Virus record (IMG/VR): IMGVR_UViG_3300027782_000046
Location: 49,679-113,678 of that record
Direction: 5' to 3' (one strand)
Source of the DNA: a virus
Lineage: Duplodnaviria > Caudoviricetes
DNA length: 64,000 nucleotides
Of this stretch, positions 7,536 to 26,054 are shown piece after piece (the first letter of the stretch is position 1; each line of letters begins with the position of its first letter). Both the position numbers and the translations under genes were made by a program. The notes beneath the pieces were generated by a model, which worked only from the letters and a program-made list of their open reading frames with translations, ran no database searches and was not told the origin of the DNA.

Positions 7536-7541
7536 ACAATT

Positions 7542-7755
7542 ATGACGTTCTCATTTCAAAATTTTAATTGGAACGGCGGTTTTAGAATTTATACGAATGC
7601 GATATCTTCTGTTGAATATCTGCTTGTTGCTGGCGGTGGATCTGGCGGAGTAAATAGTAATCAGGGCGGCGGTGCCGGTGGTATGCAGGCCAATACTGCT
7701 TCTGTGTCCATAGGTACTATATACATTTAAGAGTTCTGGTACAATAACATTCTAA
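7542..7755 (+). pseudogene. Internally deleted, frameshifted glycine-rich array member
   Basis: It starts like its paralogs (MTFSFQNF...VEYLLVAGGG) and stops at 7730. The family C-terminus YTFKSSGTITF* survives in the +1 frame at 7720-7755. Confidence 0.8.
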
Positions 7756-7761
7756 AATAAT

Positions 7762-8592
7762 ATGACTTTCTCGTTTCAAAATCTTAGTTATACAGGAAAT
7801 TTCACATTTTTACCTGGTCCAATACCACCTCCAATAATTGATTATTTGGTTGTTGCTGGAGGTGGAGGCGGGGGCGGCACTAGCAATGACGGTAACGGCG
7901 GCGGAGGTGGCGCCGGCGGGTTTGTAATGGGGACAACGGCAGTTACTTCAGGATACACATTAAATATTTCAATAGGTGCAGGCGGCGCCGTTGCTGCAAA
8001 CGGTGTTGATTCAACTTTACAATTATCTGGATCATTGACTATTACTTCATTAGGTGGCGGCGGCGGTCAACAATATGGCATTGGTAATAGTGGTGGATCG
8101 GGTGCTGGAACGTCAAGGGTTGCAGATCGCGGCGGCTATGGATTACAACCAGCAAGTGCCAGTGGCGGCTATGGTAACGATGGTGGTGCTTCCAGTAGCG
8201 GATACTATGTTACTGGCGGCGGTGGTGCCGGTGCTGCTGGATCAGGATATCCTGGCGCAGGCGGCGCTGGTAAAGAATGGCCGGTTGGTTCTGGAACATA
8301 CTATGCAGGTGGTGGCGCCAGCTGGTATGCAATGGGTGGGACAGGCGGAGGCGGTAACGGAGCTCTTCAAGTTGGTAATAACACTGGCCAAAACGGCGTA
8401 GCAAATACTGGCGGCGGCGGTAGCGTAGGCACAAATAACGGGGCTGAGGGCCGCGGCGGATCTGGTGTTGTTATCATTCAATATCTTGAGGGATACCCGC
8501 CCGCCGCAAATACAACTGGTTCACCTACAATAACTGTTTCTGGCGGATATAGAACATATAAATTTACAAGTACCGGTACAATAACATTCTAA
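7762..8592 (+). CDS. Glycine-rich domain virion protein (array member, tagged)
   Basis: MTFSFQNL tag; DYLVVAGGG; GGSGVVIIQY; YKFTSTGTITF*. Confidence 0.85.
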   Translation: MTFSFQNLSYTGNFTFLPGPIPPPIIDYLVVAGGGGGGGTSNDGNGGGGGAGGFVMGTTAVTSGYTLNISIGAGGAVAANGVDSTLQLSGSLTITSLGGGGGQQYGIGNSGGSGAGTSRVADRGGYGLQPASASGGYGNDGGASSSGYYVTGGGGAGAAGSGYPGAGGAGKEWPVGSGTYYAGGGASWYAMGGTGGGGNGALQVGNNTGQNGVANTGGGGSVGTNNGAEGRGGSGVVIIQYLEGYPPAANTTGSPTITVSGGYRTYKFTSTGTITF

Positions 8593-8599
8593 AATAATT

Positions 8600-9505
8600 A
8601 TGCCCATTTCTTTTCAAAATATTAACTATCAAGGCAATTTTACTTTTACAACTGGGCCATCACAGGTATCCAGCCCGTCAACTGTAGAATACTTAGTTAT
8701 AGCCGGCGGTGGCGGTGGAGGTGGCGGCACAACTAGTCCCGGCGGGTCGGGCGGCGGCGCCGGCGGTTATAGAACAGCTACTGGATTTTCTGTTACTCCA
8801 GGGGCAAACATAGTAATTACTGTTGGATCTGGCGGTACTGCTGGAACAGGAACATCGCCAATTGCGACTAAAGGAAGTGATTCAATATTTAGTACTATTA
8901 CTTCTACAGGCGGTGGAGCCGGCCAACATTATAATCAAACATTCAATTCTGCAATACATAGTGGTGGCTCCGGCGGCGGCGCATTTTGGAATTTTGGAAC
9001 AGCTGGAACTGGTAATACACCTAGTACAAGCCCAAGTCAAGGAAACGACGGTGGCCCAGCAGGCGGCGGTGGCGCAACTCAGGCAAGTTCTGGCGGCGGA
9101 GGAAGTAGCGCAGTAGGTGGGCAATCTACTGGGTCGGCCGGTGGAGCTGGAGGTAATGGTACTGCATCCTCAATTTCTGGTACTTCCACTACATACGCTG
9201 GCGGCGGTGGCGGCGGTGCAGGCATTAATAGCACGTTAGGTGCCGGTGGTTCTGGAGGCGGCGGCAGCGGTGGGGCCACCTACGGCAATGGATCGGACGG
9301 ATCCACTAATACCGGAGGCGGTGGTGGCGGTGCAGGCGAAGAACAAAATGGTACTCGTACTGGAGGCAATGGTGGTTCGGGTATTGTAATTATACGTTAT
9401 GCAGATTCTTATGCGGCAGCGACAACAACAGGATCTCCTAACGTAACAGTTGCCGGTGGTTATAGAGTATATAAATTTACAAATTCCGGCTCAATAATTT
9501 TCTAA
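8600..9505 (+). CDS. Glycine-rich domain virion protein (array member, tagged)
   Basis: MPISFQNI tag; VEYLVIAGGG; GGSGIVIIRY; YKFTNSGSIIF*. Confidence 0.85.
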   Translation: MPISFQNINYQGNFTFTTGPSQVSSPSTVEYLVIAGGGGGGGGTTSPGGSGGGAGGYRTATGFSVTPGANIVITVGSGGTAGTGTSPIATKGSDSIFSTITSTGGGAGQHYNQTFNSAIHSGGSGGGAFWNFGTAGTGNTPSTSPSQGNDGGPAGGGGATQASSGGGGSSAVGGQSTGSAGGAGGNGTASSISGTSTTYAGGGGGGAGINSTLGAGGSGGGGSGGATYGNGSDGSTNTGGGGGGAGEEQNGTRTGGNGGSGIVIIRYADSYAAATTTGSPNVTVAGGYRVYKFTNSGSIIF

Positions 9506-9506
9506 A

Positions 9507-10427
9507 ATGATTACGTTCAATAATATTTCCTCTTCAGGTAGTTTTAATTTTAATGTTACTACATTAGGGCCAACTGCCCCTTCGTCTGTAGACTATTTGG
9601 TCGTAGCAGGTGGCGGGCCCGGCGGATATGGAATACAAAACTATTCTATTGGTGCAGGTGGCGGCGCAGGTGGACTATTACAAGCAACCGGGGCAGCTAT
9701 AACTCCAAGTGTAACTTATACAATTACTATTGGCGCGGGTGGCGCGCAAAGTTCTTGGACCAATGGATCAAATTCTGTTATTTCAGGATCGGGATTTACA
9801 ACTGTTACAGCTGTTGGCGGCGGAAAAGGAGCAGATTCTCGCAATTATAATGTGCCTGCTGGCAACGGAGGAAGCGGCGGCGGAGGGGCAACTCTTATAG
9901 GCAGTTCAACTGGTAAAGGTATATATCCAGGTTCAACGTATATAGATGCAGCCAGACAAGGTTATGATGGAGGTAATAATGGAACAAATGGATATCCTTA
10001 TCCTACAGCAGGTGGCGGTGGTGCCGGTGGCGATGGATTAAATGGTTCTGGGTCCTCGGGCGGAACGGGCGGCCCTGGTTTATATTCTACAATATCTGGT
10101 TCAAATGTTGCTTACGCTGGCGGCGGTGGTGGATCAGTAGTTCAAGGTTCGGGTTATCTAAGTACCGGCGGTATTGGTGGTGGCGGCCGAGGCGGCTCAC
10201 CCGGCCTTGCTGAGGCAGGTACTATAAATACAGGCGGAGGCGGCGGTGCCGGTGGCGGTACAGTATCTTCTCCTGCAGCTGGTGGGGATGGAGGTTCGGG
10301 TATTATAATTATACGATATGCTGATTCTTATAATGCTGCTTCAAATACAACAGGTTCTCCAAACGTAACAGTGGCGGGTGGTTACCGAATATACAAGTTC
10401 ACAAGTTCTGGTTCAATAACTTTCTAA
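9507..10427 (+). CDS. Glycine-rich domain virion protein (array member, tagged)
   Basis: MITFNNI tag; same conserved blocks as its paralogs. Confidence 0.85.
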   Translation: MITFNNISSSGSFNFNVTTLGPTAPSSVDYLVVAGGGPGGYGIQNYSIGAGGGAGGLLQATGAAITPSVTYTITIGAGGAQSSWTNGSNSVISGSGFTTVTAVGGGKGADSRNYNVPAGNGGSGGGGATLIGSSTGKGIYPGSTYIDAARQGYDGGNNGTNGYPYPTAGGGGAGGDGLNGSGSSGGTGGPGLYSTISGSNVAYAGGGGGSVVQGSGYLSTGGIGGGGRGGSPGLAEAGTINTGGGGGAGGGTVSSPAAGGDGGSGIIIIRYADSYNAASNTTGSPNVTVAGGYRIYKFTSSGSITF

Positions 10428-10445
10428 ATAAAAATGTTTACTTTT
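10390..10445 (+). repeat. 56-bp perfect direct repeat spanning a stop-spacer-start junction (second copy 11314-11369)
   Basis: TATACAAGTTCACAAGTTCTGGTTCAATAACTTTCTAAATAAAAATGTTTACTTTT at both sites. A 46-bp overlapping match also links 11334-11379 with 24278-24323. Confidence 0.9.
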
Positions 10446-11351
10446 AATAATTTTAATGTTACTGGTAATTGGTCTGCAACCAGTGCCGTATATATCGGAG
10501 CACCTACAGCCGTTGAATACTTAGTTGTTGCTGGTGGAGGCGGTGGTGGTGGATCTGCTGGTGGTGGTGGAGGCGCCGGCGGGTATCTTGCAAATACTGG
10601 ATATTCTGTAAATGTTTCTTCAGTTTATACTGTAACCGTGGGAGGTGGTGGAACAGCAGGTGGTGGCGGTTCTCCAGCATACCAAGGCACACAAGGAGGA
10701 AACGGCACCAATTCAGTATTTTCAAATATAACTAGCATTGGTGGCGGTGGCGGTGGCGCATCGGGCCCTGGAGGCGGGACCGTTGGTTTGCGAGTTGGTT
10801 TATCTGGTGGGTCAGGTGGAGGTGGCGCGGGGAATGATCAATCTGTTCAAGCTGCTGCATCTGGCACCGCCGGTCAAGGTAATAATGGTGGATCAAATGG
10901 CACAGTATCCTCCCCGTATCCAGCAGCCGGCGGCGGCGGAGCCGGTGCAGTGGGGGGAAATGGTTCTGGTAGTCAATCTGGTGCGGGAGGCGCAGGATTA
11001 TATTCCACTATTTCTGGAGCAAATGTTGCTTATGCCGGCGGCGGCGGTGGTGGCTCATCAATACAAGGCGCAGTACAAGGCGCTGGCGGTGTTGGCGGTG
11101 GCGGTGCTGGAGGTCAGACAGCTGTAAGTTCAGTAGCAGGTACTACAAATACCGGAGGAGGAGGCGGGGGTGGACAAAATACATCTGGAGCACCTTATAT
11201 TAATGGTGCCACAGGCGGTTCAGGTATCGTTATTATTCGATATGCAGATTCATATACTGCTGCTTCAAATACAACAGGTTCCCCTAATGTAACCGTTTCT
11301 GGCGGTTACCGAGTATACAAGTTCACAAGTTCTGGTTCAATAACTTTCTAA
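10434..11351 (+). CDS. Glycine-rich domain virion protein (array member, tagged)
   Basis: MFTFNNF tag; same conserved blocks. Confidence 0.85.
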   Translation: MFTFNNFNVTGNWSATSAVYIGAPTAVEYLVVAGGGGGGGSAGGGGGAGGYLANTGYSVNVSSVYTVTVGGGGTAGGGGSPAYQGTQGGNGTNSVFSNITSIGGGGGGASGPGGGTVGLRVGLSGGSGGGGAGNDQSVQAAASGTAGQGNNGGSNGTVSSPYPAAGGGGAGAVGGNGSGSQSGAGGAGLYSTISGANVAYAGGGGGGSSIQGAVQGAGGVGGGGAGGQTAVSSVAGTTNTGGGGGGGQNTSGAPYINGATGGSGIVIIRYADSYTAASNTTGSPNVTVSGGYRVYKFTSSGSITF

Positions 11352-11357
11352 ATAAAA

Positions 11358-12233
11358 ATGTTTACTTTTCAAAATTTTAGCACCAATGGGACTTTTTCTG
11401 TTGTAACTGGTTCTATACCGCCTGCAACTGTTGAATATTTAGTTGTTGCTGGTGGAGGCGGTGGCGGTGGTTCTGTTGCTGGTGGTGGAGGTGCTGGTGG
11501 TTTATTAACAGCCTCCAATTTATCTATTTCTCCTAGTATTGTGTATTCAATTAATATTGGCGCAGGAGGAGCAGGCGGCGCAAATAAATATTTTGGATCA
11601 AATGGTTCAAATTCTTATATTAGTGCAAGTGGAAGCAATCTTATTATTGCAGTAGGTGGTGGATACGGTTCGGCAGGTAATGATACCAATATAAATGGTG
11701 GGGCATGGAATGCTGGATCTGGCGGTTCTGGTGGTGGCGGTACAAATATTGTTGGAAGATTGGGAACTCCGGGTTCCGGCATTGCTGGTCAAGGTTATGC
11801 CGGCGGCGCCGGTTATAATAGTGGTTCAGCTGGTTATACTGGTGGTGGAGGCGGTGCAGGTGGCGTGGGAGTAGCTGGAGATGGAACCACTGCAGGCGCC
11901 GGCGGCCCTGGGGTATATTCTACAATATCCGGTTCAAATGTTGCTTACGCAGGTGGCGGCGGTGGCGGACAAAATGGTCTTGGCGGAGTAGGTGGAGGCG
12001 GAGTAGGTGGAGATACTGCACCAACCGCAGGTACTACAAATACAGGTGGCGGCGGCGGTGGTGGAAATGGATATGCGGCGGGCACAGGTCGAGCAGGAGG
12101 CTCTGGTATTATTATCATTCGTTATCCAGATTTTTATACTTCTGCAGCAAATACAACCGGTTCTCCTAATGTAACTGTTTCCGGTGGTTACAAGATATAC
12201 CAATTCACAAGTTCTGGCACAATAACTTTCTAA
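11358..12233 (+). CDS. Glycine-rich domain virion protein (array member, tagged)
   Basis: MFTFQNF tag; same conserved blocks. Confidence 0.85.
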   Translation: MFTFQNFSTNGTFSVVTGSIPPATVEYLVVAGGGGGGGSVAGGGGAGGLLTASNLSISPSIVYSINIGAGGAGGANKYFGSNGSNSYISASGSNLIIAVGGGYGSAGNDTNINGGAWNAGSGGSGGGGTNIVGRLGTPGSGIAGQGYAGGAGYNSGSAGYTGGGGGAGGVGVAGDGTTAGAGGPGVYSTISGSNVAYAGGGGGGQNGLGGVGGGGVGGDTAPTAGTTNTGGGGGGGNGYAAGTGRAGGSGIIIIRYPDFYTSAANTTGSPNVTVSGGYKIYQFTSSGTITF

Positions 12234-12239
12234 ATAAAA

Positions 12240-14255
12240 ATGTTTACTTTACAAAATCTATCTTCTACCGGAAATTTTTATATTACGCAAGTAAATATTC
12301 CGCAGCCATCTGACGTATACTTTAAGTACGTTACAATGTTGTTGCATGGTGACGGAACTAACGGCTCTCAAAATAATACGTTTATAGACTCCAGTACTAA
12401 TGCTTTTACTATTACTCGTAACGGCAATACCACGCAAGGTACGTTTAGTCCATATGATGCTAGCTGGTCTAATTACTTTAATGGCAGTAGCACTTATTTT
12501 ACAGTTCCAACTAATGCAAACTTGCATCTAGAAACTGCTTCAGTTTTTACAGTTGAAGCCTGGATATATCTTACAGGAATTGGTTCATCGCAATCAACTA
12601 TTGTTGGTAATAGAAGCGGTTTAAGCGTAAGTGGATGGGAATTTAGAGTTAGTACTTCACGAACCTTACAATTCTATTATACCGGCAATTCTGGAAGTAC
12701 CACAAATTCTACCGATGTATTAGCATACAATACTTGGTACCATGTTGCTTTAGTAAGAAACTCTGGAACCGTTCAGATTTTTATCAACGGAGCGCTATCC
12801 ATAACTAATAATTCCATTACAAACGGAACATTAAATTCAACTGCGCTTACTATTGGAGCTGAGGGATCTGACACTACATCCATATTTGCAGGATATATTT
12901 CAAATTTAAGAATTGTTAACGGCACGGCATTATATACAGCTGCCTTTACAGTCCCAACATCGCCATTAACTGCAATTACTAATACAGCATTACTCACTTG
13001 TCAATCAAATCAATTCATTGATAATAGTACAAACGCATTTACTATAACAACTACCGGTTTGCCTATAGTGCAAAGTTTTAGTCCGTTTGCTCCAACAACG
13101 GCATACAGTACTAGCGTTATTGGTGGATCTGCATACTTTGATGGTACAGGGGATTATTTGTCAATTCCAAATGCCGCCGCACTTCAATTTGGCACCGGTG
13201 ATTTTACAGCCGAGTATTGGGTATATTTTAATTCAACACCTAGCGGCACCTCTCAAATGCCTTTATCTAAATGGGCATCAAATACCGGTTGGGAACTTTA
13301 TTTTACCAGTAACACTAATAAATTTGCTTTTTATGCACTTGCTGGCACCCCAGCTATACTTGGCACAACATCACCTGTTGGAGGTGTATGGTATCATTTG
13401 GCGGTGTCACGAGCCAGCGGAACTATAAGACTTTTTGTTAATGGAACACAGGAAGGATCATCAGTTACTGGAAATACAAGTGATTTTAGTGATACTAATA
13501 CTTTATTTATTGGCAAAGAAAACAACACCACGGGTTTACCTTTTACCGGTTATGTCTCCAACCTTCGGATAGTCAAAGGCACAGCAGTCTATACAGCTAA
13601 TTTTACGCCTCCTACTGCTCCATTGACTGCAATAGCAAACACATCTTTACTATGTAATTTTACTAATGCGGCAGTTGTTGACAACTCGCAATTAAATAAT
13701 CTAGAGACAGTTGGTACTGTACAAATAAACACAAGTGTTGCAAAATTTGGCGCAGGGTCAATGTATTTTGATGGCAGTAGTTATTTAACCGGAAAAAGCA
13801 GCACAAATTTTAGTTTTACCGGAGATTTCACTATTGAATGTTGGGTTTATTTAACTACGGCCAGTGGAACAAAAACAATCTTTACAAACAGATCATCTTA
13901 TGCTAATCCAACCGGGCTTGCTTGGGTAACGCAATCTGGGTCTGCAGCATTATCAATCTATACAAATAGCGGATTTTCTGCAGCAAGCTCAACTGCTATT
14001 ACAACAAATACATGGACTCATGTTGCTCTTACAAGATCAGGAAGTACTATTACCCAATGGCTAAATGGTGTGAGCGTCGCTAACGTAACAAATAGCAGTT
14101 CTTTTACAGATGCTTTATGTTATATAGGTGCAAATAATTCTGCCGCAGAATATTGGCCAGGTTATATAGACGATTTCCGTATTACAAATGGTATCGCAAG
14201 ATATTCAAATACATTTACTGTACCAACAACAGTTTTCCCTGACATTGGACCATAG
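12240..14255 (+). CDS. Triple LamG/concanavalin A-like lectin domain protein (tagged)
   Basis: Three FT(V/A/I)ExW...W(Y/T)H(V/L)A..R.G....F.NG...GYISNLR/IDDFRIT units; MFTLQNL tag. Confidence 0.85.
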   Translation: MFTLQNLSSTGNFYITQVNIPQPSDVYFKYVTMLLHGDGTNGSQNNTFIDSSTNAFTITRNGNTTQGTFSPYDASWSNYFNGSSTYFTVPTNANLHLETASVFTVEAWIYLTGIGSSQSTIVGNRSGLSVSGWEFRVSTSRTLQFYYTGNSGSTTNSTDVLAYNTWYHVALVRNSGTVQIFINGALSITNNSITNGTLNSTALTIGAEGSDTTSIFAGYISNLRIVNGTALYTAAFTVPTSPLTAITNTALLTCQSNQFIDNSTNAFTITTTGLPIVQSFSPFAPTTAYSTSVIGGSAYFDGTGDYLSIPNAAALQFGTGDFTAEYWVYFNSTPSGTSQMPLSKWASNTGWELYFTSNTNKFAFYALAGTPAILGTTSPVGGVWYHLAVSRASGTIRLFVNGTQEGSSVTGNTSDFSDTNTLFIGKENNTTGLPFTGYVSNLRIVKGTAVYTANFTPPTAPLTAIANTSLLCNFTNAAVVDNSQLNNLETVGTVQINTSVAKFGAGSMYFDGSSYLTGKSSTNFSFTGDFTIECWVYLTTASGTKTIFTNRSSYANPTGLAWVTQSGSAALSIYTNSGFSAASSTAITTNTWTHVALTRSGSTITQWLNGVSVANVTNSSSFTDALCYIGANNSAAEYWPGYIDDFRITNGIARYSNTFTVPTTVFPDIGP

Positions 14256-14256
14256 T

Positions 14257-16284
14257 ATGTTCACTATACAAAATCTTAATATTGGTGGTGTTTCTGGATA
14301 TGCAGCCGAACTGCCAACTGATACTTACTTTAATTATGTTACTTTGCTTTTACATGGTGACGGGACTAACAGCACCCAAAACAATACGTTTATAGACTCC
14401 AGCAGCAATGCGTTTACTGTCTCTCGCACTGGCAGCGCAACGCAAGGCAGCTTTAGCCCGTTTGGGCCTGATTGGAGTAATTATTTTAATGGTACAAGCG
14501 GTTATTTAAACGCAAGCGCAAATGATGTTTTTGCTTTTGGCACGGGGTCTTTCACTGTAGAAGCATGGGTAAATTTATCAATATTGCAAGACACTTTGTT
14601 ATTTGATACCAGAACATCCGCTGCAACTACTGGAATCGGATTTCAAATTAATTCATCTGGTGTTCTTTGTTATATTCAATCAACAAGTACATCATTAGCA
14701 ACAACTGCGTTAACTGTAAATACATGGAATCATGTTGCTTGGGTTTATAATGGCACATCAGTTACTGGGTACGTTAACGGAGTTGCAGGCACTTCATCAA
14801 CTATTTCTTTAAATATAACGCAAAATAATTCTTCTATTGGTCGTTCCGGCGTATCCTCGGCTAGTTTTATTGCTGGATATATATCCAATTTGCGAGTTGT
14901 TAAAGGAACAGCAGTTTACACCGCAGCTTTTACACCTCCTACAGCGCCATTAACAGCAATAACCAATACGTCTTTACTCACTTGCCAATCAAATCGTTTT
15001 ATTGACAATAGCACAAACGCTTTTGCCATAACAATTGCTGGTTCCCCATCCATTCAGCGTTTTAGCCCGTTTAGTATGGGGTCGGCGTATTCTACTTCTG
15101 TAATTAGCGGCAGCGGTTATTTTAATGGTAGCACTGATTCTTTAACTGTTCCAGCTAATACAGCATTTGCTTTTGGGCAAGGTGATTTTGCGGTTCAAAT
15201 GTGGATATATCCTACAGCAACAATAACTAGCCCCGCCAATATTGGATTATTTTATATAGAACAAACAAACGGATTGGTTGTTGGTTTGGTTAATGGTTAT
15301 ATTGCGATGGGTTTAAGAACAATTGGATACGATTTAACATCAACTTATATACCACCTTTAAACACTTGGACTCATATTGCTGTAACTAGATCAGGAGCAA
15401 CTGCGTACATTTTTGCAAATGGTGTTTTAGTAGGTACGGTAACGGCCCCTGGAGGAAATCCGGCCAATAACTCTAATTACCTTTGTACAACTGGATTACC
15501 TACTATTGCTGGAAATTATGCTGGCGGTGCAGGATTTGGTTATTTTCCTGGATACATATCTAATATTCAAGTAGTTAAAGGTACAGCAGTTTATACATCT
15601 GCTTTTACTCCGCCTACTTCCCCAGCAACAGCAATCACAAATACATCACTTCTGCTTAACTACGTCAACGGCGGCATTTACGACAATGCCATGCAGAACA
15701 ATTTAATAACCGTTGGTAATGCTCAGATTAGCACCACGCAATCTAAATTTGGCGGGGCTTCAATGTATTTTGATGGTTCTGGTGATTATTTGGTTACGAA
15801 CATTCCATCAAATAATGTATATACTTTTGGTTCGGGTGATTTTACTATTGAGTTTTGGTTATATTCTGTTAATTTTTCCAGCCCAGTTAATTTGCAAATA
15901 GTTGTTGATTTTAGGCCAACAAGCACGGATGGTCTATATCCTTGTATATATTTTACAAGTGGTCAAATTTTTTATTATGTTTCTTCAACTAATGTAATTA
16001 CAGGAACAACTTTAAGCTCAAGTCAGTGGTACCACATTGCTTTAAGCCGTTCTGGAACAAATACTAAATTGTTTGTAAATGGTACGCAAGTTGGTTCCAC
16101 GTACACAGATTCAAATAATTATTTATGTGGGCTTAATAGGCCTGCAATTGGATGTAGGGGTTTTTTGTTGGGTGAAAATAGTTACAATGGTTATATAGAC
16201 GATCTGCGTATCACCAAAGGATACGCCCGCTATACCGCTAACTTCACTGCACCAACAGCGGCTTTACCCGATATCGGACCATAG
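14257..16284 (+). CDS. Triple LamG/concanavalin A-like lectin domain protein (tagged), paralog of 12240
   Basis: Start moved from 14188 to the ATG at 14257 (MFTIQNL tag, 1 nt after the previous stop). Same LLHGDG...PDIGP* architecture. Confidence 0.85.
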   Translation: MFTIQNLNIGGVSGYAAELPTDTYFNYVTLLLHGDGTNSTQNNTFIDSSSNAFTVSRTGSATQGSFSPFGPDWSNYFNGTSGYLNASANDVFAFGTGSFTVEAWVNLSILQDTLLFDTRTSAATTGIGFQINSSGVLCYIQSTSTSLATTALTVNTWNHVAWVYNGTSVTGYVNGVAGTSSTISLNITQNNSSIGRSGVSSASFIAGYISNLRVVKGTAVYTAAFTPPTAPLTAITNTSLLTCQSNRFIDNSTNAFAITIAGSPSIQRFSPFSMGSAYSTSVISGSGYFNGSTDSLTVPANTAFAFGQGDFAVQMWIYPTATITSPANIGLFYIEQTNGLVVGLVNGYIAMGLRTIGYDLTSTYIPPLNTWTHIAVTRSGATAYIFANGVLVGTVTAPGGNPANNSNYLCTTGLPTIAGNYAGGAGFGYFPGYISNIQVVKGTAVYTSAFTPPTSPATAITNTSLLLNYVNGGIYDNAMQNNLITVGNAQISTTQSKFGGASMYFDGSGDYLVTNIPSNNVYTFGSGDFTIEFWLYSVNFSSPVNLQIVVDFRPTSTDGLYPCIYFTSGQIFYYVSSTNVITGTTLSSSQWYHIALSRSGTNTKLFVNGTQVGSTYTDSNNYLCGLNRPAIGCRGFLLGENSYNGYIDDLRITKGYARYTANFTAPTAALPDIGP

Positions 16285-16299
16285 AATGTTTTCTTTTCC

Positions 16300-17205: not shown

Positions 17206-17210
17206 TTTAA

Positions 17211-18395: not shown

Positions 18396-18429
18396 TCGGT
18401 TATCAATTAATTTATCACAAGGAGATAAA

Positions 18430-18783
18430 ATGTCGCATTTTGCAAAAGTAGAAGATGGTATTGTAACACAAGTAATCGTAGTAGAGCAAGACGTTATTAA
18501 TACTGGTTTATTCGGAGACCCATCATCTTGGGTACAAACATCATATAACACATACGGTGGCGAGCATCGTAATGGTGGCACACCTTTGCGTAAAAATTAC
18601 GCAGGTATTGGTTACACTTATGATTCTCAAAGAGACGCATTTATTGCGCCTAAACCATTCGCAAGCTGGGTTCTAGATGAGAACACTTGCCTTTGGAACG
18701 CACCTGTTACTATGCCTACAGAAGGCGGACCATACAGATGGGATGAGGAAACAACTAATTGGGTTGCAATTACTACTGAGTAA
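18430..18783 (+). CDS. Small protein associated with fibre/adhesin modules (possible assembly chaperone)
   Basis: AGGAG RBS, then MSHFAKVEDG...WVQTSYN...RKNYAGIGYTYD..RDAFIAPKP..SW. Start moved from 18337. Function is inferred from position only. Confidence 0.7.
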   Translation: MSHFAKVEDGIVTQVIVVEQDVINTGLFGDPSSWVQTSYNTYGGEHRNGGTPLRKNYAGIGYTYDSQRDAFIAPKPFASWVLDENTCLWNAPVTMPTEGGPYRWDEETTNWVAITTE

Positions 18784-18794
18784 AGAGAAAGCAT

Positions 18795-19127
18795 ATGGCA
18801 ATAACGTATAAAGTTTTGGGGCAAGCATCCCCAGCTGCAACTACAAATACTGCACTGTATACTGTACCGGCATATATGGCTGCGGCCACATCTACGTTAT
18901 CCATATGCAATCAAAATGCAACTGATGCAAGATTTCGTGTAGCGGTACAGGCAGGAAATGCGTCGATACAATTTAAACATTATATCGCATATGATACACT
19001 TTTACCCGCATATGAAACCATTTCATTAACTATAGGAATGACATTGGCAACTACAGATGTGGTTACCGTGTATGCAAATACAACCAATATTAGTTTTAAT
19101 TTATTTGGGTCAGAGATTAATACATGA
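18795..19127 (+). CDS. Stand-alone KVLGQ adaptor-like domain protein
   Basis: MAITYKVLGQ...FNLFGSEI; homologous to the N-termini of 6471 and 17211. Confidence 0.8.
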   Translation: MAITYKVLGQASPAATTNTALYTVPAYMAAATSTLSICNQNATDARFRVAVQAGNASIQFKHYIAYDTLLPAYETISLTIGMTLATTDVVTVYANTTNISFNLFGSEINT

Positions 19128-19954
19128 CCTTAAGACGATTTAGTACTACTAAAGTTAGCCGGTCCCGATCTTTTTCGACGTCCGGCACAACTACTAGTAA
19201 TAACGTAAGTCGTCAGATGAGAATAGATTATTTAATTGTTGCAGGTGGTGGTGGCGGAGGTGGATCTCCGGGTACCGACTCAGACAGAGATGGCGGAGGT
19301 GGTGCTGGCGGTCTTGTTATGGGATCCGTTGCTGCCAGTAAATTTGGAATAGGTACGGCGATATCTATACAAGTTGGAACTGCAGGATCAACATCAACCT
19401 CTCCAACTGCAGGCGGTAATAGTTATTTAGGACCTGTGATTGCATATGGTGGAGGAACTGGTGGATATTTTGGTGCAAATGCTGGTGCTGGCGGTTCTGG
19501 AGGCGGTTCTGGAAGAAACTCAAGTCCTGCAGGAAAAACTCAAATAAGTTATCCGGAATATGGTGGGACTGGATTTGGTAACGCAGGCGGCGGCCAAGGA
19601 GATGGAATATTTGCATCTTCCGCAGGTGGTGGTGGGGGTGCTTTAGGTCCTGGTGGATTTTCTGGTGGCAATTCTGGTGGTTTAGGAATGGTATCAACTA
19701 TTACTGGATCTGCAGTAACATATGCAAGCGGAGGCAGGGCAGGATCATTAATAACATATCCAACAAATACTGGTTCTGGGGGTAGTGTCCAACCATATGG
19801 TGGCACGACTCAACCAACAGATGGTATTGTGATAGTAAGACATTTGGCATCGTACCCTCAAGCAACAACTACTGGTTCTCCAACAATAACAATATATGGT
19901 AATTATATAATTTACACGTTTACGAGTTCTGGCTCAATAACATTCCCGGGATAG
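19124..19954 (+). CDS. Glycine-rich domain virion protein with a basic N-terminus (array member, different leader)
   Basis: ATGA overlap with 18795; MTLRRFSTTK leader; DYLIVAGGG; YTFTSSGSITF. Confidence 0.8.
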   Translation: MTLRRFSTTKVSRSRSFSTSGTTTSNNVSRQMRIDYLIVAGGGGGGGSPGTDSDRDGGGGAGGLVMGSVAASKFGIGTAISIQVGTAGSTSTSPTAGGNSYLGPVIAYGGGTGGYFGANAGAGGSGGGSGRNSSPAGKTQISYPEYGGTGFGNAGGGQGDGIFASSAGGGGGALGPGGFSGGNSGGLGMVSTITGSAVTYASGGRAGSLITYPTNTGSGGSVQPYGGTTQPTDGIVIVRHLASYPQATTTGSPTITIYGNYIIYTFTSSGSITFPG

Positions 19955-19958
19955 AATA

Positions 19959-21674
19959 ATGTCAATCATTTTTAACAATATAAGTATTTTTGGTAATTTA
20001 TCTGTAGTAACACCTTACATACAATTGGCTCCAAGCACTGTTGAATACTTAGTTGTAGCTGGCGGTGGAGGCGGGGGTGGAGGCGTTGTAAACATATCTG
20101 TTGGCTCTGGTGGTGGTGCAGGTGGATACTTAGCTAATACTGGATTTGCGGTTAGTGCATCAACAACATATGCTGTAACGGTAGGAGCAGGAGGCACTGC
20201 AGGGTATTCAACACCAGGCGGTAATGGAAGTCCATCAATATTTTCAAGTATTACATCAACTGGTGGCGGTGGAGGTGTTACTGGAAGTGGTATATATAAT
20301 GGCGTTGCAGGCGGCTCTGGAAGTGGGGCTGCATACACAGGAACACCTGGCACAGGAATTAGCGGACAAGGTTTCGCAGGAGGAAGTGGGGCAACAACTT
20401 CAAATTACGGATCAGGTGGAGGTGGCGGTGCAGGCGGCGTTGGTGGAAATGGAACTACAACAGTTGGAGGTGCTGGAGGTATTGGGGCTACTTCTAGTAT
20501 TAGTGGTTCTTCACTTAATTACGCTGGTGGTGGTGGTGGAGGTATTGGAAATAGTGGCTCTGGAGGCGCCGCATCTTATGGCGGCGGGGCGGGAGCTTTT
20601 GGAGTAGCAACGGCTGCAACTGCTAATACTGGAGGTGGTGGCGGTGGAGGAGGGGGTGGATCATCATCGGCTGGAACCGGCGGCAATGGCGGGTCTGGTG
20701 TTGTAATCATACGTTATCCATCTGATTATAAACTAGCAACATATACAACAGGTTCGCCAGACGTAGTAACGTCTGGCGGAAATGTAAGTTACATATTTAC
20801 ACAATCTGGTTCAATAACTTGGGCTCCTGTTGTTACAGTTGAATACTTAGTTGTTGCTGGTGGTGCTAGTGGCGGTTCTCCATATGGTGGAGGTGGTGGT
20901 GCAGGCGGATTTAGATCATCAGTAGTAGGTTCTACTAGTGGAGGTGGAGCATCCGCGGAAACTGTATTAAGTTTAACTCCGGGTGTTTCTTATACTGTAA
21001 CAATTGGTGCTGGCGGCGCTGCACGAAACAACACATCTACTCCTGGAAATAATGGGTCAGACTCAGTATTTGCCACTATTACATCTATTGGTGGCGGTGG
21101 TGGTGGCTGGCGATATACTAGTGGTCAAGGTTCTAACGGTTCATCCGGCGGTTCTGGAGGAGGTGCTCCAGATAATTATTGGAGTGCTAGTTATACTGGT
21201 GGTGCAGGAACAACAGGTCAAGGATATGCCGGTGCTGGAGCAGCATTTTATACTTACTTAGGTTCGGGCGGCGGCGGCGCCGGTGGTGCCGGAGTTCAGG
21301 CTTCGTCAGGTGGTACGGGTGGTGCTGGTCAAACAAATTCTATAACTGGAACAGCAACATACTATGGTGGTGGTGGTGGTGGTGGACAAAATAATGCTGG
21401 TGGCGCAGGCGGTGCCGGTGGTTCTGGAGGTGGCGGCCGAGGATCAGGCGGAGGTTTGGCTTCTACAAACGGAACTGTTAATACAGGTAGCGGAGGTGGT
21501 GGTGGTGGAGACGGAGGATATGAAGCGTCAGGTGCCGGTGGTTCTGGAATTGTCATTATTCGTTATGCAGATTCAACTGCAGCTGCATCAAACACAACAG
21601 GATCTCCTAACGTAACTGTTACCGGCGGTTATAGAATATATAGATTCTGGCAATCTGGAACAATAACTTTTTAA
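19959..21674 (+). CDS. Tandem two-domain glycine-rich virion protein (tagged)
   Basis: Two VEYLVVAGG...GSG(V/I)VIIRY units joined by SGSITWAPVVT. Confidence 0.85.
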   Translation: MSIIFNNISIFGNLSVVTPYIQLAPSTVEYLVVAGGGGGGGGVVNISVGSGGGAGGYLANTGFAVSASTTYAVTVGAGGTAGYSTPGGNGSPSIFSSITSTGGGGGVTGSGIYNGVAGGSGSGAAYTGTPGTGISGQGFAGGSGATTSNYGSGGGGGAGGVGGNGTTTVGGAGGIGATSSISGSSLNYAGGGGGGIGNSGSGGAASYGGGAGAFGVATAATANTGGGGGGGGGGSSSAGTGGNGGSGVVIIRYPSDYKLATYTTGSPDVVTSGGNVSYIFTQSGSITWAPVVTVEYLVVAGGASGGSPYGGGGGAGGFRSSVVGSTSGGGASAETVLSLTPGVSYTVTIGAGGAARNNTSTPGNNGSDSVFATITSIGGGGGGWRYTSGQGSNGSSGGSGGGAPDNYWSASYTGGAGTTGQGYAGAGAAFYTYLGSGGGGAGGAGVQASSGGTGGAGQTNSITGTATYYGGGGGGGQNNAGGAGGAGGSGGGGRGSGGGLASTNGTVNTGSGGGGGGDGGYEASGAGGSGIVIIRYADSTAAASNTTGSPNVTVTGGYRIYRFWQSGTITF

Positions 21675-22619
21675 ATGTTTACCTTTCAAAATCTTAGTTT
21701 TGCTGGAACTTGGTCTGCCGTAGGATTGCCCAGCGCAGCCACTACTCCGTCAACTATAGATTATTTGGTTGTAGCTGGAGGAGGAGGCGGTCCGGGTGCA
21801 TACTATGGAGGGGGCGGTGGCGCTGGAGGTTTACGTTCTACAGTAACAACAACCGGCGGCGGAGGAAATCTTGAATCTCAGTTATCAGTTGTTGCTAGTA
21901 CAACATATAATATAACTGTAGGCGCAGGCGGAACCGCCGGTGGATCTGGCAACGCTGGTAATAATGGTGCAAATTCATCTATAATTGGAGGAGCAGTCAA
22001 TATAGTATCCTTGGGTGGTGGCGGAGGGCAGTTCTATATAACTGGTGCGCCTGCCGGCCAAGGTGGTTCTGGTGGTGGCGCCGGGTCTGGTTCTACATAT
22101 AGTATTTTGGGCACAGCAAATCAAGGATATAACGGTGGCACAGGCGGAGGTGGCGGTGGTTCTACGGGTGCTGGCTCTGGTGGTGGGGGCGGTGGTGGCG
22201 CTGGAGGCGTTGGTGGCAACGGGGTAAATAATGGATATCCTAGTGGTACTGGTGGCTCAGGCGGTCCAGGAATATACACTACTATTAGCGGAGCAAATGT
22301 TGCATATGGTGGCGGCGGTGGCGGTGCAGGATATGCAAGTGGAGGGTCTCAAACTTATCCAGGCGGTGTAGGTGGCGGCGGTGTAGGTGGAGCCGGCGGT
22401 TCTTCTGCTACTGCAGGTACGGCAAATACTGGGGGAGGCGGAGGCGCCGATGATGGTCATGCATTTACTACAGGTAAAGATGGAGGTTCCGGTATAGTTA
22501 TCATCCGCTATTCTAGTTCTTATAATGCGGCATCTGCTACAACAGGTTCACCAAACGTAACTGTTACTGGTGGTTATAGAATATACCAATTCACGAGTTC
22601 TGGAACAATAACTTTTTAA
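21675..22619 (+). CDS. Glycine-rich domain virion protein (array member, tagged)
   Basis: MFTFQNL tag; same conserved blocks. Confidence 0.85.
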   Translation: MFTFQNLSFAGTWSAVGLPSAATTPSTIDYLVVAGGGGGPGAYYGGGGGAGGLRSTVTTTGGGGNLESQLSVVASTTYNITVGAGGTAGGSGNAGNNGANSSIIGGAVNIVSLGGGGGQFYITGAPAGQGGSGGGAGSGSTYSILGTANQGYNGGTGGGGGGSTGAGSGGGGGGGAGGVGGNGVNNGYPSGTGGSGGPGIYTTISGANVAYGGGGGGAGYASGGSQTYPGGVGGGGVGGAGGSSATAGTANTGGGGGADDGHAFTTGKDGGSGIVIIRYSSSYNAASATTGSPNVTVTGGYRIYQFTSSGTITF

Positions 22620-22624
22620 ATAAA

Positions 22625-24295
22625 ATGGCATTTACAATTCAAAATCTTATTCTCGGCGGCAATATGCAAACATCGCAGCCTGCCCTTGGTGCACCTTCCG
22701 CAGTAGAATACTTAGTTGTTGCTGGTGGCGGTGGCGGTGGATATAATTATGCCGGCGGCGGCGGTGCCGGAGGATATCTTGCAAATGTTGGATATTCAGT
22801 AAATACTACTTCAACGTATACAGTCACTGTCGGCGCTGGCGGAGTTGGAGCAACAAGTGGTGCAAATGGTACAAACGGAAATGCTTCGATATTTGGCGTA
22901 TTAACTGCAAATGGAGGCGGTGGCGGTGCAGGTTTCCAAAATAATGGTTTAGCTGGTGGCTCTGGCGGTGGCGGTGGCGGAAATAACGGTGGGTCTTATA
23001 CCGGAGGTTCTGCTGTATCTGGACAAGGATACGCTGGCGGTTCTGGATATTCAAATGGCGGTGGGGGTGGTGGCGGCGGCGCTGGCGGTGTGGGTAGCAC
23101 AGGCGGCAGCGGCGGCCCTGGCCCAGGCGGCGCCGGAGGCATTGGTCAATACTCTACATTATCTGGTGCAAATGTTGCCTACGCCGGAGGAGGTGGTGGT
23201 GGCGGCAGTTCTGGTGGAACTGCAAGTTACGGTGGCGGCGCAGGAGGCAGCGGAACAGGTGGTTCCGGAACAATTGGCACTACAAATACTGGAGGGGGCG
23301 GCGGCGGTGGCTCTGCTTATAATGGTTCTGGCGGCAATGGCGGTTCCGGCATCGTTATCTTGCGTTACCCATCTGATTATACTGCAGCAATTACCACAAC
23401 TGGTTTGCCAAATGTAAGTGTAACAAGTGGTTATAGAATATACCAATTCAATAGTTCTGGAACAATATCTTGGGCACCGATCTTATTTATGGAATACTTA
23501 GTTGTTGCTGGTGGTGGTGGCGGCGGTAGAGAGAGTTACTCAACCGGAGTAGGTGGCGGTGGAGGTGCTGGCGGCATGCTTACCGGAAATAGTACTGTAA
23601 CTGTTGGAACTACTTTTATTGTTACTGTAGGCGCCGGCGGTTCTGGATATACTGTTAGTGGGGGGACGGGGTCTCCTGGTTACAATGGTGCAAATTCTAA
23701 TATTTCTGGTTCAATTACTGTAACCGCGGTTGGTGGTGGTGGTGGTGGTGGCGGTTCTAGTGGAGGTACAGGTTCTGCCGGTCTAAATGGTGGTTCCGGC
23801 GGTGGTTCCGGCGGTACTGGTGCAGGTGCAGGAATTGCCGGCCAAGGAAATAACGGCGGAACAGGATCTGGAGCCGGTGGTGGCGGTGGTGGCGGTGCTG
23901 GCGGTCTTGGTGGTTCTGGAGCTGGCAGCGCAGGTGGTGCTGGCTTATATTCAACAATAAGCGGAGCAAATGTTGCATATGCTGGCGGTGGCGGTGGAGG
24001 TCTTTATAATGCTCCCGCGGCAGCCGGCGGGGTTGGTGGAGGCGGCAATGGTGGTCTTTATTATGCCGGGCAAGCACCTACAGCAGGTGCTACTAATACC
24101 GGAGGAGGTGGAGGTGGTTCGGGCAATAGTAGTGGCGGAGATAGCACTCCTGCAGCAGGTGGTTCTGGTGTAGTTATTATTCGTTATGCGGACTCAAATG
24201 CAGCAGCAACTGCAACAACTGGTTCGCCAAATGTAACCGTTTCTGGTGGATATAGAGTATACCAATTCACGAGTTCAGGTTCAATAACTTTCTAA
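22625..24295 (+). CDS. Tandem two-domain glycine-rich virion protein (tagged)
   Basis: Two units joined by SGTISWAPILF; MAFTIQNL tag. Confidence 0.85.
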   Translation: MAFTIQNLILGGNMQTSQPALGAPSAVEYLVVAGGGGGGYNYAGGGGAGGYLANVGYSVNTTSTYTVTVGAGGVGATSGANGTNGNASIFGVLTANGGGGGAGFQNNGLAGGSGGGGGGNNGGSYTGGSAVSGQGYAGGSGYSNGGGGGGGGAGGVGSTGGSGGPGPGGAGGIGQYSTLSGANVAYAGGGGGGGSSGGTASYGGGAGGSGTGGSGTIGTTNTGGGGGGGSAYNGSGGNGGSGIVILRYPSDYTAAITTTGLPNVSVTSGYRIYQFNSSGTISWAPILFMEYLVVAGGGGGGRESYSTGVGGGGGAGGMLTGNSTVTVGTTFIVTVGAGGSGYTVSGGTGSPGYNGANSNISGSITVTAVGGGGGGGGSSGGTGSAGLNGGSGGGSGGTGAGAGIAGQGNNGGTGSGAGGGGGGGAGGLGGSGAGSAGGAGLYSTISGANVAYAGGGGGGLYNAPAAAGGVGGGGNGGLYYAGQAPTAGATNTGGGGGGSGNSSGGDSTPAAGGSGVVIIRYADSNAAATATTGSPNVTVSGGYRVYQFTSSGSITF

Positions 24296-24301
24296 ATAAA
24301 A

Positions 24302-25177
24302 ATGTTTACTTTTCAAAATTTTAATGTCAGTGGACCGTTTGCTGTTTATGGAGGCCCTGTTGTTTATGGCGCGCCAAGCACAGTAGAATATTTAGTTGTA
24401 GCAGGTGGAGGATCCGGAGCGGGCTACGCGGGCGGCGGTGGCGCTGGTGGATATAGAACATCAACAAGTTATAGTATTAATACTGCCAATTCTTATACAA
24501 TTACCATAGGAGCAGGAGGCACGGCGGTAACAGACGTTTCTCAGAATGGTAATGATGGCAGTCCTTCAGTATTTGATACAATTACCAGCGCTGGAGGTGG
24601 AGGCGGGGGAGGATATGCAAACTCTGGTCGCCCCGGAGGTTCGGGCGGCGGCGGAGGAATTGGTTCTGGTAATCCGGCAGGCGGAGCTGCAACCCCTGCC
24701 GGCCAAGGAAATGCAGGTGGTGCAGGGGGTAGTTATTCTAATCCTTATCCAAGCGGAGGTGGTGGTGGCGCCGGCGCAGTAGGGGGCGCCGCAGTTGGTA
24801 GCACTCAGTCAGGTGATGGAGGTGCTGGATTATATTCCACTATTTCTGGAGCAAATGTTGCTTATGCCGGCGGTGGTGGCGGCGGTATAGGATATGCCGC
24901 GGCCGGTAAAGGAGCCGCGGGCATTGGTGGTGGCGGCATCGGTGGCAACGGTAGCACAGCCGCCGGATCCGGCACACCAAATACAGGCGGTGGAGGCGGC
25001 GGCCAAGGATATAATAGCGGAAACGGATCGGGCGGCGCCGGCGGATCGGGCGTAGTTATTATTCGTTATGCAGATGTTTATACTGCCGCATCAAATACAA
25101 CTGGCTCGCCAAATGTAACTGTTACTGGCGGATATAGAGTATACCAATTCAATAGTTCTGGTTCAATAACTTTCTAA
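24302..25177 (+). CDS. Glycine-rich domain virion protein (array member, tagged)
   Basis: MFTFQNF tag; same conserved blocks. Confidence 0.85.
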   Translation: MFTFQNFNVSGPFAVYGGPVVYGAPSTVEYLVVAGGGSGAGYAGGGGAGGYRTSTSYSINTANSYTITIGAGGTAVTDVSQNGNDGSPSVFDTITSAGGGGGGGYANSGRPGGSGGGGGIGSGNPAGGAATPAGQGNAGGAGGSYSNPYPSGGGGGAGAVGGAAVGSTQSGDGGAGLYSTISGANVAYAGGGGGGIGYAAAGKGAAGIGGGGIGGNGSTAAGSGTPNTGGGGGGQGYNSGNGSGGAGGSGVVIIRYADVYTAASNTTGSPNVTVTGGYRVYQFNSSGSITF

Positions 25178-25178
25178 T

Positions 25179-26054
25179 ATGATTACTGTCCAAAACGTAA
25201 ATCTTAACGGCAATTTTTCTTTTATTGCTCCACAAATTCTAATTGTCCCCTCAACTGTAGAATATTTGGTTATTGCCGGCGGGGGGGGTGGCGGAAGTGC
25301 AGTTGCCAATAATACTGGTATGGGAGGCGGCGGCGCAGGTGGCTATAGAGCCAATGCCGGATATTCTGTTTCTGCCGGATCAGCAATAACAGTTACGGTC
25401 GGCGCAGGCGGCGCGGCTGGCGGGTATAACGGAAATAACTCCGTTTTTGGATCTATCACATCAACAGGCGGCGGGGGTGGCGGTACTTATTATGGTGCCG
25501 GCGGATACGGAGGAAAAGATGGCGGCTCAGGAGGTGGTGGTTCTGGGTATGGAACAATAACTCCTGGTAGTGGCACTTCTGGGCAAGGAAATTCTGGTGG
25601 CTCTGGAAATACTGGAAACTATGCTGGTGGTGGTGGTGGTGGGGGCGGCGCTAGTGCTGCTGGTAGCGTTGGCCCTACAGAAAAAGGCGGCGCTGGAGGT
25701 AATGGAACATCATCATCCATAAGTGGGTCTGCAACTACTTATGGTGGCGGCGGTGGCGGCGGGAATGGCTCAACAAGCGGCGCGGCCGGCGCTGGCGGTA
25801 CAGGTGGTGGTGGCGCTGGCAGTGGGTCACCAAATGGTTCAACCGCAACTTCAGGAACAACAAATACTGGCGGGGGTGGCGGAGGTGGTTATTACTATTC
25901 TGGTGTGGGCGGCGCAGGTGGCTCTGGTATTGTAATCATTCGTTACGCAGATTCATATACTGCTGCTTCAAATACAACAGGTTCTCCTAATGTAACCGTT
26001 TCTGGTGGTTACAGAGTATACCAATTCACAAGTTCTGGTTCAATTACGTTTTAA
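25179..26054 (+). CDS. Glycine-rich domain virion protein (last array member, tagged)
   Basis: MITVQNV tag; same conserved blocks. Confidence 0.85.
   Translation: MITVQNVNLNGNFSFIAPQILIVPSTVEYLVIAGGGGGGSAVANNTGMGGGGAGGYRANAGYSVSAGSAITVTVGAGGAAGGYNGNNSVFGSITSTGGGGGGTYYGAGGYGGKDGGSGGGGSGYGTITPGSGTSGQGNSGGSGNTGNYAGGGGGGGGASAAGSVGPTEKGGAGGNGTSSSISGSATTYGGGGGGGNGSTSGAAGAGGTGGGGAGSGSPNGSTATSGTTNTGGGGGGGYYYSGVGGAGGSGIVIIRYADSYTAASNTTGSPNVTVSGGYRVYQFTSSGSITF

Follow-up and report, generated by a model that had tools for sequence, protein, structure and literature searches.

Can one short N-terminal peptide serve as a common attachment handle for phage proteins of unrelated fold? The question is raised by an uncultured, T4-like phage known from the linear record IMGVR_UViG_3300027782_000046 (113,678 bp, 63% complete), of which we analyzed the final 64 kb (the window; coordinates are window positions unless marked as genome positions). 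An array of same-strand genes (6471-26054) is flanked there by two giant fibre genes (30..6461 and 26105..31936, plus strand), and fourteen of the array proteins start with variants of one peptide of about 15 residues, hereafter called the tag or leader. A first-pass annotation of the window saw in this tag a candidate universal docking peptide. Our analysis points to a narrower role, which we hold with about as much confidence as doubt: the tag would be a lineage-specific N-terminal docking or assembly leader that attaches alternative receptor-binding proteins to the virion.

One leader on two payload families

The tag follows the motif M-(x)-h-[TSI]-h-[QN]-N-h-xxx-G-x-h (h, hydrophobic residue), which has a beta-hairpin pattern. 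Exactly 14 open reading frames (ORFs, designated by their start positions) of the record begin with this motif, and all of them lie inside the window: 12 ORFs with a Gly_rich_2 domain (PF21722; 11 intact and one remnant of 62 amino acids, aa) and two triple-LamG ORFs. A Pro-containing linker of 5-13 residues follows the tag in 13 of the 14 (ORF 7542 is without it), and its end is the first conserved strand of the payload. The first-pass annotation had arrived at the same 14 genes, at this linker as the usual continuation and at the tag as the head of both triple-LamG proteins, and the five examples quoted in it are all correct. Asn6 and Gly11 are invariant in an alignment of the 14 tags and one homologue from L023, a metagenome locus with a near-identical array. 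Methionine aminopeptidase removes the N-terminal Met from MT, MP, MS and MA forms, and after the expected loss of Met from the four tags of this type, the Asn would be residue 6 of the mature protein in all 14 cases.

The motif stands out clearly from the background. A 15-column position-specific scoring matrix (PSSM) was made from the 14 tags, so that their own scores are circular whereas the absence of internal matches is not. A six-frame scan of the record yields 14 matches of 28-40 bits, all at most two residues from a start codon, and the next-best match (18.2 bits) is located in a fibre rung. Nineteen of 20 codon-shuffled genomes had no match of 15 bits or more, and the remaining one had a single match of 17.7 bits.

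All tagged genes lie on the plus strand. Nine encode intact single-domain Gly_rich_2 proteins: 7762..8592 (276 aa, MTFSFQNLSYTGNFTF and a Pro linker), 8600..9505 (301 aa, MPISFQNINYQGNFTF), 9507..10427 (306 aa, MITFNNISSSGSFNF), 10434..11351 (305 aa, MFTFNNFNVTGNWSA), 11358..12233 (291 aa, MFTFQNFSTNGTFSV), 16300..17205 (301 aa, MLTIQNFNLSGAMSF), 21675..22619 (314 aa, MFTFQNLSFAGTWSA), 24302..25177 (291 aa, MFTFQNFNVSGPFAV) and 25179..26054 (291 aa, MITVQNVNLNGNFSF). Two more encode double Gly_rich_2 proteins, 19959..21674 (571 aa, MSIIFNNISIFGNLSV) and 22625..24295 (556 aa, MAFTIQNLILGGNMQT). These 11 ORFs score 38-142 bits with the Pfam family (cut-off 24.3), and the remnant (7542..7730), which consists of the tag MTFSFQNFNWNGGFRIY and the first ~45 residues of the Gly-rich core, scores 24.2 bits. 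The triple-LamG proteins are encoded at 12240..14255 (671 aa; MFTLQNLSSTGNFYIT, the linker QVNIPQPS, then DVYFKYVTMLLHGDG) and 14257..16284 (675 aa; MFTIQNLNIGGVSGYA, a tag with a degenerate second half), and match Laminin_G_3 (PF13385) in three stretches each, with 216.6 and 159.8 bits, respectively. ORF 7542 is a collapsed Gly-rich gene, the C-terminal hairpin of which (YTFKSSGTITF*) persists at 7720-7755 in the +1 frame, and a public protein set contains a 129-aa collapsed LamG protein (P0242) with an intact tag; deletion derivatives thus retain both ends.

The Gly-rich payload is related to solved phage structures mainly through its fold. Its sequence profile matches the tail fibre of cyanophage Pam3 weakly (E 0.04). 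An AlphaFold2 model of ORF 11358 (mean predicted local distance difference test score, pLDDT, 92.7; predicted template modelling score 0.89) aligns in VIA-align with the tail-tip chain 9d93_Qa of mycobacteriophage Bxb1 (Z 13.7, root-mean-square deviation 2.9 Å, 158 residues aligned, 30% identity, model residues 20-257) and the Pam3 fibre 7ypx_A (Z 13.1, 2.7 Å, 167 residues, 30% identity, model residues 19-262 to chain residues 93-280); the glycine-rich domains of ALK/LTK score lower (Z 5-6). On the basis of this model, the Gly-rich payload is identified as a TNF-like, polyglycine-lattice receptor-binding domain of phage fibre tips. The same fold occurs in 149 viral models of BFVD at E <= 0.001, mostly at the C-terminus of longer proteins. 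A TNF-like and glycine-rich unit is the receptor-recognizing fibre end of Pam3 gp24, preceded by an alpha-helical baseplate-docking domain, and has been likened to the adhesin gp38 of S16 with its polyglycine sandwich (PMC9608196). In the nine single-domain paralogues the Gly runs are conserved and the intervening stretches variable, the arrangement of glycine-rich motifs and hypervariable segments described for gp38 (PMC3157838). The LamG proteins belong to a large phage family of concanavalin-like repeat proteins, some PHROG families of which have baseplate wedge or virion structural protein as their label. The first 290 aa of the LamG protein had no phmmer match in the PDB.

Lineage-specific leaders of a recurring design

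How widespread is the tag? When 1,835,955,588 representative proteins were searched with a profile of the tag region, four matched at E <= 0.001, all from residue 1-2 onward: two LamG proteins, the 62-aa remnant and an N-terminal fragment with the identical sequence of ORF 24302. The expectation in the first-pass annotation that such a search would list other payloads was not borne out, as all four matches belong to this lineage and no third payload type appeared among the 1.84 billion proteins. With the library clustered at 50% identity, a representative without the tag may stand for Gly-rich proteins that carry it. Two of the best 120 Gly-rich homologues and four of the best 120 LamG homologues carry the tag, all of them close relatives, and among 80 metagenome loci with relatives of the LamG N-terminus (678 kb) tags occur in L023 only (10 tags). 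Pattern scans returned 18 matches in IMG/VR and 13 in the GTDB species genomes, none of which was genuine, and tblastn against cultured phages gave no match for the 24-aa tag and none for a whole Gly-rich protein, where the low-complexity filter is the suspected cause. The tag is restricted to one lineage and two payload families, and the attribute 'universal' has to be dropped.

The architecture itself recurs. Three other uncultured phage records (G001, G002 and G003) repeat it with leaders of their own. G002 follows the synteny of the window, with a giant fibre gene, eight tandem Gly-rich genes and then a homologue of ORF 18430, nrdA and nrdB; all eight Gly-rich genes bear leaders of the form M-h-h-x-x-G-h-x-h-x-x-G-h-x-h and a Pro-rich linker. 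In G001 (locus L128), MII.G.G.. leaders head three Gly_rich_2 genes, one further Gly-rich-like gene and one triple-LamG gene, and in G003 (locus L131) MG[FL]IISG is found on two triple-LamG and two Gly-rich genes. In the window, G001 and G003 alike, the LamG gene bears the leader version of the Gly-rich genes of the same genome. This comparative result, that at least three lineages have genome-specific leaders on Gly-rich as well as LamG proteins, is independent of any docking function. In addition, two leader classes span both families among the best 120 homologues of each: M..RYPGG.I...G.W.L (4 Gly-rich, 51 LamG) and MAQFPS (4 Gly-rich, 2 LamG). Of 79 other metagenome loci, 14 hold ORF pairs with common N-terminal residues, and 12 of the 24 pairs have no similarity past residue 60. 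Judged from these sequences, the leader design is general, the N-terminal anchor being conserved and the distal part variable as in the familiar logic of phage receptor-binding proteins, and the leader sequence is lineage-specific. The literature searched mentions neither PF21722 nor Gly_rich_2 and contains no description of such adhesin arrays, although not every wording was searched.

Outside the array, three ORFs of the window have looser hairpin-like leaders, each followed by Pro, that do not score with the tag PSSM: 46227-46985 (MIINGGIVLTQGMLLAPGPLP), 46986-47717 (a single LamG protein, MIIQNVTFIDGSTLSPSS) and 34204-35757 (a Gly_rich_2 domain and a further domain, MFSLSGGQISGSFELSYRGPFAVP). 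Their leaders resemble the MII.G.G leaders of G001 and of protein P0117.

Inside the lineage, the N-terminus is the steadier part of the genes. The window and L023 have 13 syntenic gene pairs; in 6 of them the interior is only 20-68% identical and the first 25 columns are 96-100% identical (five pairs) or 72% identical (one pair). In the two regions compared (8600-25177 of the window, 507-15293 of L023), the sequence between the conserved 5' and 3' ends turns over in the manner of cassettes. There are two LamG genes in the window and one in L023, and one single-domain gene of the window is a double-domain gene in L023. A tree of 27 cores, made as a quick tree and not by a careful search, has a clade (SH-aLRT 97) with 9 of the 12 cores from the window, including both untagged fusions in which a ~110-aa domain, here called KVLGQ, stands in the N-terminal place of the tag. 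One of these fusions (ORF 17211) has its core next to those of the tagged ORFs 9507 and 11358. A G002 core joins the cores of ORFs 7762 and 19124, and that of 16300 falls outside. By this sequence comparison, N-terminal modules have been exchanged between tag and KVLGQ, and onto LamG genes.

Docking and its alternatives

What could such a leader do? If it is a docking handle, it would attach a battery of 11 intact polyglycine-lattice adhesins and two lectin-like triple-LamG proteins to the same kind of virion site, a fibre or baseplate component. The leader would probably become ordered only upon binding, and its free N-terminus would be part of the epitope. We infer both the docking and the nature of its target. 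The tag occupies the position where solved homologues bear an attachment module, such as the baseplate-docking helices of Pam3. From the plug-and-socket system imagined in the first-pass annotation, the plug survives as a separate, protein-constrained module at an attachment position, but it is not universal, one proposed socket behaves itself like a plug, and mimicry of the fibre rung is not general.

Several points weigh against docking. A binding partner for the tag was not identified, and the T4gp10-like domain (PF07880) is not matched in this record, from which, at 63% completeness, the head and baseplate genes are absent. Most Gly-rich copies share the tag by descent from tandem duplication, so that the independent evidence for modular transfer comes down to the two LamG genes, the swaps from tag to KVLGQ and the parallel lineages. 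In the model of ORF 11358, the pLDDT of the tag (70-74) exceeds the values usual for free tails; since it is not very low, some packing on the core is modelled. Finally, the tag matches the C-terminal hairpin of the Gly-rich domain in register (+10.1, reached by 13 of 2000 column permutations), and this likeness also fits an intramolecular or head-to-tail role.

The last point leads to the alternative that survives best, though we consider it unlikely: the leader may be an oligomerization element, which either nucleates a homotrimer in the manner of a small foldon or engages the C-terminal hairpin of a second Gly-rich protein in head-to-tail pairing. In the latter case it would act like a donor hairpin and yield chains of adhesins or hetero-oligomers. 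The in-register match is to the hairpin YRVYKFTSSGSITF, with other registers scoring -4 to -21, and the double proteins have the same order of hairpin, short Pro linker and next core that is seen with the tag. The triple-LamG proteins of L131 end in a motif like their own leader. These proteins (2850-4931 and 5046-7139 in that locus) terminate in ...ASGMTMSGTGSGMIISSI, which resembles the neighbouring Gly-rich leader MGFIISGSGNGLSMSGTGTGMVMSS and may signal head-to-tail pairing. Moreover, the trimer of Pam3 gp24 is held mainly by its N-terminal part (PMC9608196). On the other side, gp38-type polyglycine adhesins are monomeric (PMC12032242), the LamG proteins of the window are without such a C-terminal hairpin, and each Gly-rich domain has its own C-terminal hairpin, so that no acceptor lacking a strand is evident.

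A wider scheme, about which we are equally doubtful, would combine both ideas: genome-specific plugs on a dozen or more adhesins might compete for or jointly fill sockets on the giant fibres, or chain head-to-tail, which would give each virion a mixed, combinatorial tip and let plug and socket co-evolve. The co-evolving plug classes would then be MFTFQN.., MII.G.G.. and MGFIISG... As read from these sequences, such a hairpin-leader plug system of uncultured T4-like freshwater phages was not found described in the literature searched.

Considerably less probable is that the tag folds back on the payload that it heads, which it would cap or help to fold, the LamG tags being hitch-hikers of recombination within the array. 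Besides the tag pLDDT, the Gly_rich_2 profile is in line with it, as it extends into the second half of the tag in ORF 11358 (residue 10 corresponds to profile position 3). As to hitch-hiking, the first 37 nt of LamG gene 12240 fall within a junction repeat family at 75% identity, and the tag of the second LamG gene is half degenerate. Most observations speak for a tag outside the fold. The model of ORF 11358 has a core pLDDT of 84-98 and the range of 70-74 over residues 1-20; no DSSP strand precedes residue 24, and the structural alignments to solved relatives begin at residue 19-20. Among the best 120 Gly-rich homologues, more than 100 have a core that opens with VEYLVVAGG directly after a Pro/Ser/Thr linker, with unrelated modules (He_PIG, TIG, fn3, LamG or other short leaders) upstream. 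The tag is missing from the KVLGQ fusions, from ORF 19124 and from the second domains of both double proteins, where a linker of 5-6 residues joins the C-terminal hairpin of the first domain to the untagged second one (...SGSITW-APVVT-VEYLVV in ORF 19959). The model and these homologues argue that the tag is a separate N-terminal module outside the Gly-rich fold, and not, as the first-pass annotation had named as a possible refutation, an integral strand of this payload. The same applies to the LamG proteins as far as could be tested on sequence: leaders are exchanged for others exactly at the boundary before DPYF.YV.LLLHGDG. With regard to hitch-hiking, P0121-P0124, relatives of the LamG gene, retain the tag nearly unchanged, and two further lineages likewise have one leader, of a different sequence, on both Gly-rich and LamG proteins.

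Very improbable, in our view, is that the peptide is functionless and its conservation reflects a need of the nucleic acid, either an AT-rich, unstructured translation start for GC-rich genes or a junction for cassette recombination. The GC content is 19-38% over the tag codons and 38-55% over the gene bodies, and the predicted folding energy of the start region is -1.3 to -7.3 kcal/mol in 13 of the 14 genes against -9 to -19 kcal/mol in the bodies; equally weak start structures (mean -6.0) are, however, found in other genes of this phage that are without the motif. The array as a whole has about 50% GC against 34-39% in the genome (43-53% across 6000-26000, with a strong positive GC skew, against 33-40%), because its coding sequence is rich in GGN; the two LamG genes within this island are not GC-rich (38-39%, usual for the genome). 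Array genes are spaced by 1-15 nt, tagged genes likewise beginning 1-15 nt past the previous stop codon, and promoter-like sites (40 versus 39.1 in shuffles) and terminator-like sites (13 versus 16.9) do not exceed the shuffled expectation, which suggests one long transcript. Mosaic breakpoints lie directly after the leader. Against this stands the codon usage. The invariant Gly11 is encoded by four codons (GGC 5, GGA 4, GGT 4, GGG 1), and the hydrophobic positions stay hydrophobic with varying residues (F, I, L, V, W, M) and codons. Over the 15 tag codons, the proportion of synonymous differences (pS) is 0.60, near saturation, and that of nonsynonymous differences (pN) 0.39; in the linker pN/pS is ~1, as in compositionally neutral evolution. 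The 30 nt upstream of the tagged ORFs are on average only 39% identical, and the repeat families that span the junctions between genes have 60-88% identity, not above the gene bodies. Since four Gly codons are in use and the junction DNA is only 60-88% identical, these sequences indicate that the tag is constrained as a protein and not, as the other refutation foreseen in the first-pass annotation would have it, by homogenization of junction DNA.

A role as a T4-type capsid targeting sequence is not supported. Such a sequence is, like the tag, short, conserved and N-terminal on otherwise diverse proteins; it directs these into the particle and can carry foreign ones, but it aims at the head scaffold, whereas the tagged genes have fibre genes as neighbours and code for binding domains of the fibre-tip type, and the (L/I)-x-E consensus of the T4 prohead protease is absent after the tag from the alignment of the 14 tags and the L023 homologue.

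Candidate partners and known systems

If the docking reading is correct, which protein is the socket? Since the leader type co-varies across lineages, the socket should be a protein whose type switches with the leader. The KVLGQ domain, proposed as the socket in the first-pass annotation, does not fit. It is found as a stand-alone protein (18795..19127, 110 aa) and at the head of two untagged Gly_rich_2 fusions (6471..7535, domain at 6471-6830; 17211..18395, domain at 17211-17570), all on the plus strand. This domain, which is without a Pfam family, is N-terminal in 73 of its 79 longer homologues, on payloads as varied as Gly_rich_2, TIG, RCC1, CBM and others. It was therefore rejected as the socket and behaves rather as a second, larger plug. 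Stand-alone homologues adjoin fibre genes and are annotated as a virion structural protein (phiPsal1) or tail-fibre-like protein (AcaML1). Each run of tagged genes in the array has a KVLGQ-bearing gene before it, an order that recalls anchor-then-branch systems but in itself proves nothing. The KVLGQ profile found only insignificant matches to PA-IIL-type lectins among solved structures (E 0.3). A diverged copy (genome 48936-49271) follows a third giant fibre gene (2532 aa, genome 41333-48931), and another follows a 1357-aa fibre in G001. Also untagged is the Gly_rich_2 gene 19124..19954 (plus strand), with a basic, Ser/Thr-rich leader of 35 aa in place of the tag.

ORF 18430 (18430..18783, plus strand; a conserved 117-aa protein of phrog_7759, MSHFAKVEDGIV...) was rejected as well. 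Its homologues adjoin the adhesin arrays of G001 and G002, but the protein is highly similar by eye in the window and G002 where the leaders differ, and a protein that barely changes while the leader does is not expected of a socket. The family is present in 39 cultured-phage records (Synechococcus, Pelagibacter, Methylophilales and Roseobacter phages), always as a hypothetical protein.

The resemblance of the tag to the fibre rung, pointed out in the first-pass annotation, is real at the level of the pattern. N-h-xxx-G-x-h-x-h occurs in 12 of the 14 tags, at 5, 27 and 30 sites in the three giant fibres and nowhere in the 4,684 aa of 18 other window proteins. Yet the likeness goes no further than this pattern and does not co-vary in G002, where the leader pattern has no match in the 2404-aa fibre, and rung mimicry as a general rule was therefore rejected. 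The fibre gene upstream of the array encodes 2143 aa, with 80-aa super-repeats and NLNVSGNVIA-type rungs, and the one downstream 1943 aa; in all three fibres the super-repeats (240 nt) match the Chlorovirus glycoprotein repeat (PF06598). The second of them along the genome, that is, the upstream one, begins with an 18-nt unit for SGFANV-type hexapeptides, repeated ~14 times. Between the third along the genome, downstream of the array, and a gene for a tail-fibre assembly chaperone (33245-33691, PF16778) lies a 364-aa ORF (31906-33000) with about eight repeats ending in SGFGTKY.DP, which has only a weak WD40-type Pfam match. The T4-like character of the phage is visible in the first 50 kb of the record, which encode a family-B DNA polymerase, sliding clamp, clamp loader, UvsX-like recombinase and DnaB-like helicase.

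Should the leader be a docking handle, 13 intact alternative host-binding proteins would be mountable through one interface. The array would then be an extreme case of the branched receptor-binding protein systems of Klebsiella phages, in an abundant uncultured freshwater group, and such arrays could be read by a simple rule, the leader identifying the virion site and the remainder the host ligand. In addition, the leader would be a natural tag of very small size with which foreign domains could be loaded onto phage particles.

Several known systems can be compared with this array. The closest is that of the secondary receptor-binding proteins of Klebsiella and K1-5/SP6-type phages, which use a conserved N-terminal peptide to dock onto a primary one. 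In phage KP32, the first 29 residues of gp38 (RBP2) are required for incorporation and sufficient to load a foreign endosialidase domain (PMC13352976). Phages K1E, K1-5 and SP6 have N-terminal docking peptides of 7 and 11 residues, and in Klebsiella phages the length of the docking peptide varies by group (PMC6872550). The receptor-binding proteins of KP32, KP34, K1E, K1-5 and SP6 thus have a short (7-29 aa), group-specific peptide at the extreme N-terminus that is separable from unrelated distal domains (PMC6872550, PMC13352976). The same constellation, one extreme N-terminal peptide on unrelated distal parts, is found here in 14 ORFs with two payload families. The differences lie in partner, number and payload. 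The peptides of KP32 gp38, KP34 gp57 and the K1E, K1-5 and SP6 tailspikes bind a T4gp10-like branching domain, and no such partner was found here. The KP32, K1-5 and SP6 systems have 1-4 genes per peptide against 14, and their payloads are depolymerases, in contrast to the polyglycine-lattice adhesins and LamG lectin-like proteins of the array. Their peptides have no sequence similarity to the tag, which belongs to an uncultured T4-like myovirus and for which docking is predicted.

Adhesins of the T2/T6/S16 gp38 type are alike in having an N-terminal attachment part followed by a core of glycine-rich motifs with variable receptor-binding segments (PMC3157838, PMC12032242). Yet gp38 carries a folded attachment domain of ~100 aa and is present once per genome, whereas here the attachment part would be 15 aa and a linker, with 11 intact tagged and three untagged Gly-rich genes; no S16 gp38 chain is among the fold-search matches listed. 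Pam3 gp24 (7ypx, 7yfw) and Bxb1 9d93_Qa share the TNF-like and polyglycine-lattice fold with a preceding N-terminal part, which in Pam3 is a trimeric alpha-helical docking bundle of ~60 residues instead of a 15-residue hairpin-type peptide (PMC9608196). In mycobacteriophage Mysterious, described in a preprint, N-terminal beta-hairpin arms dock accessory proteins on the baseplate: a core tail protein clamps short beta elements that belong to peripheral, fibre-like proteins, as might be the case here, but the phage is of a different type, its proteins have no sequence relation to those of the window and each arm belongs to one protein, compared to a family of 14 members (PMC13252515). The principle of an N-terminal attachment handle is known from these systems, and the size of the set in this phage is unusually large.

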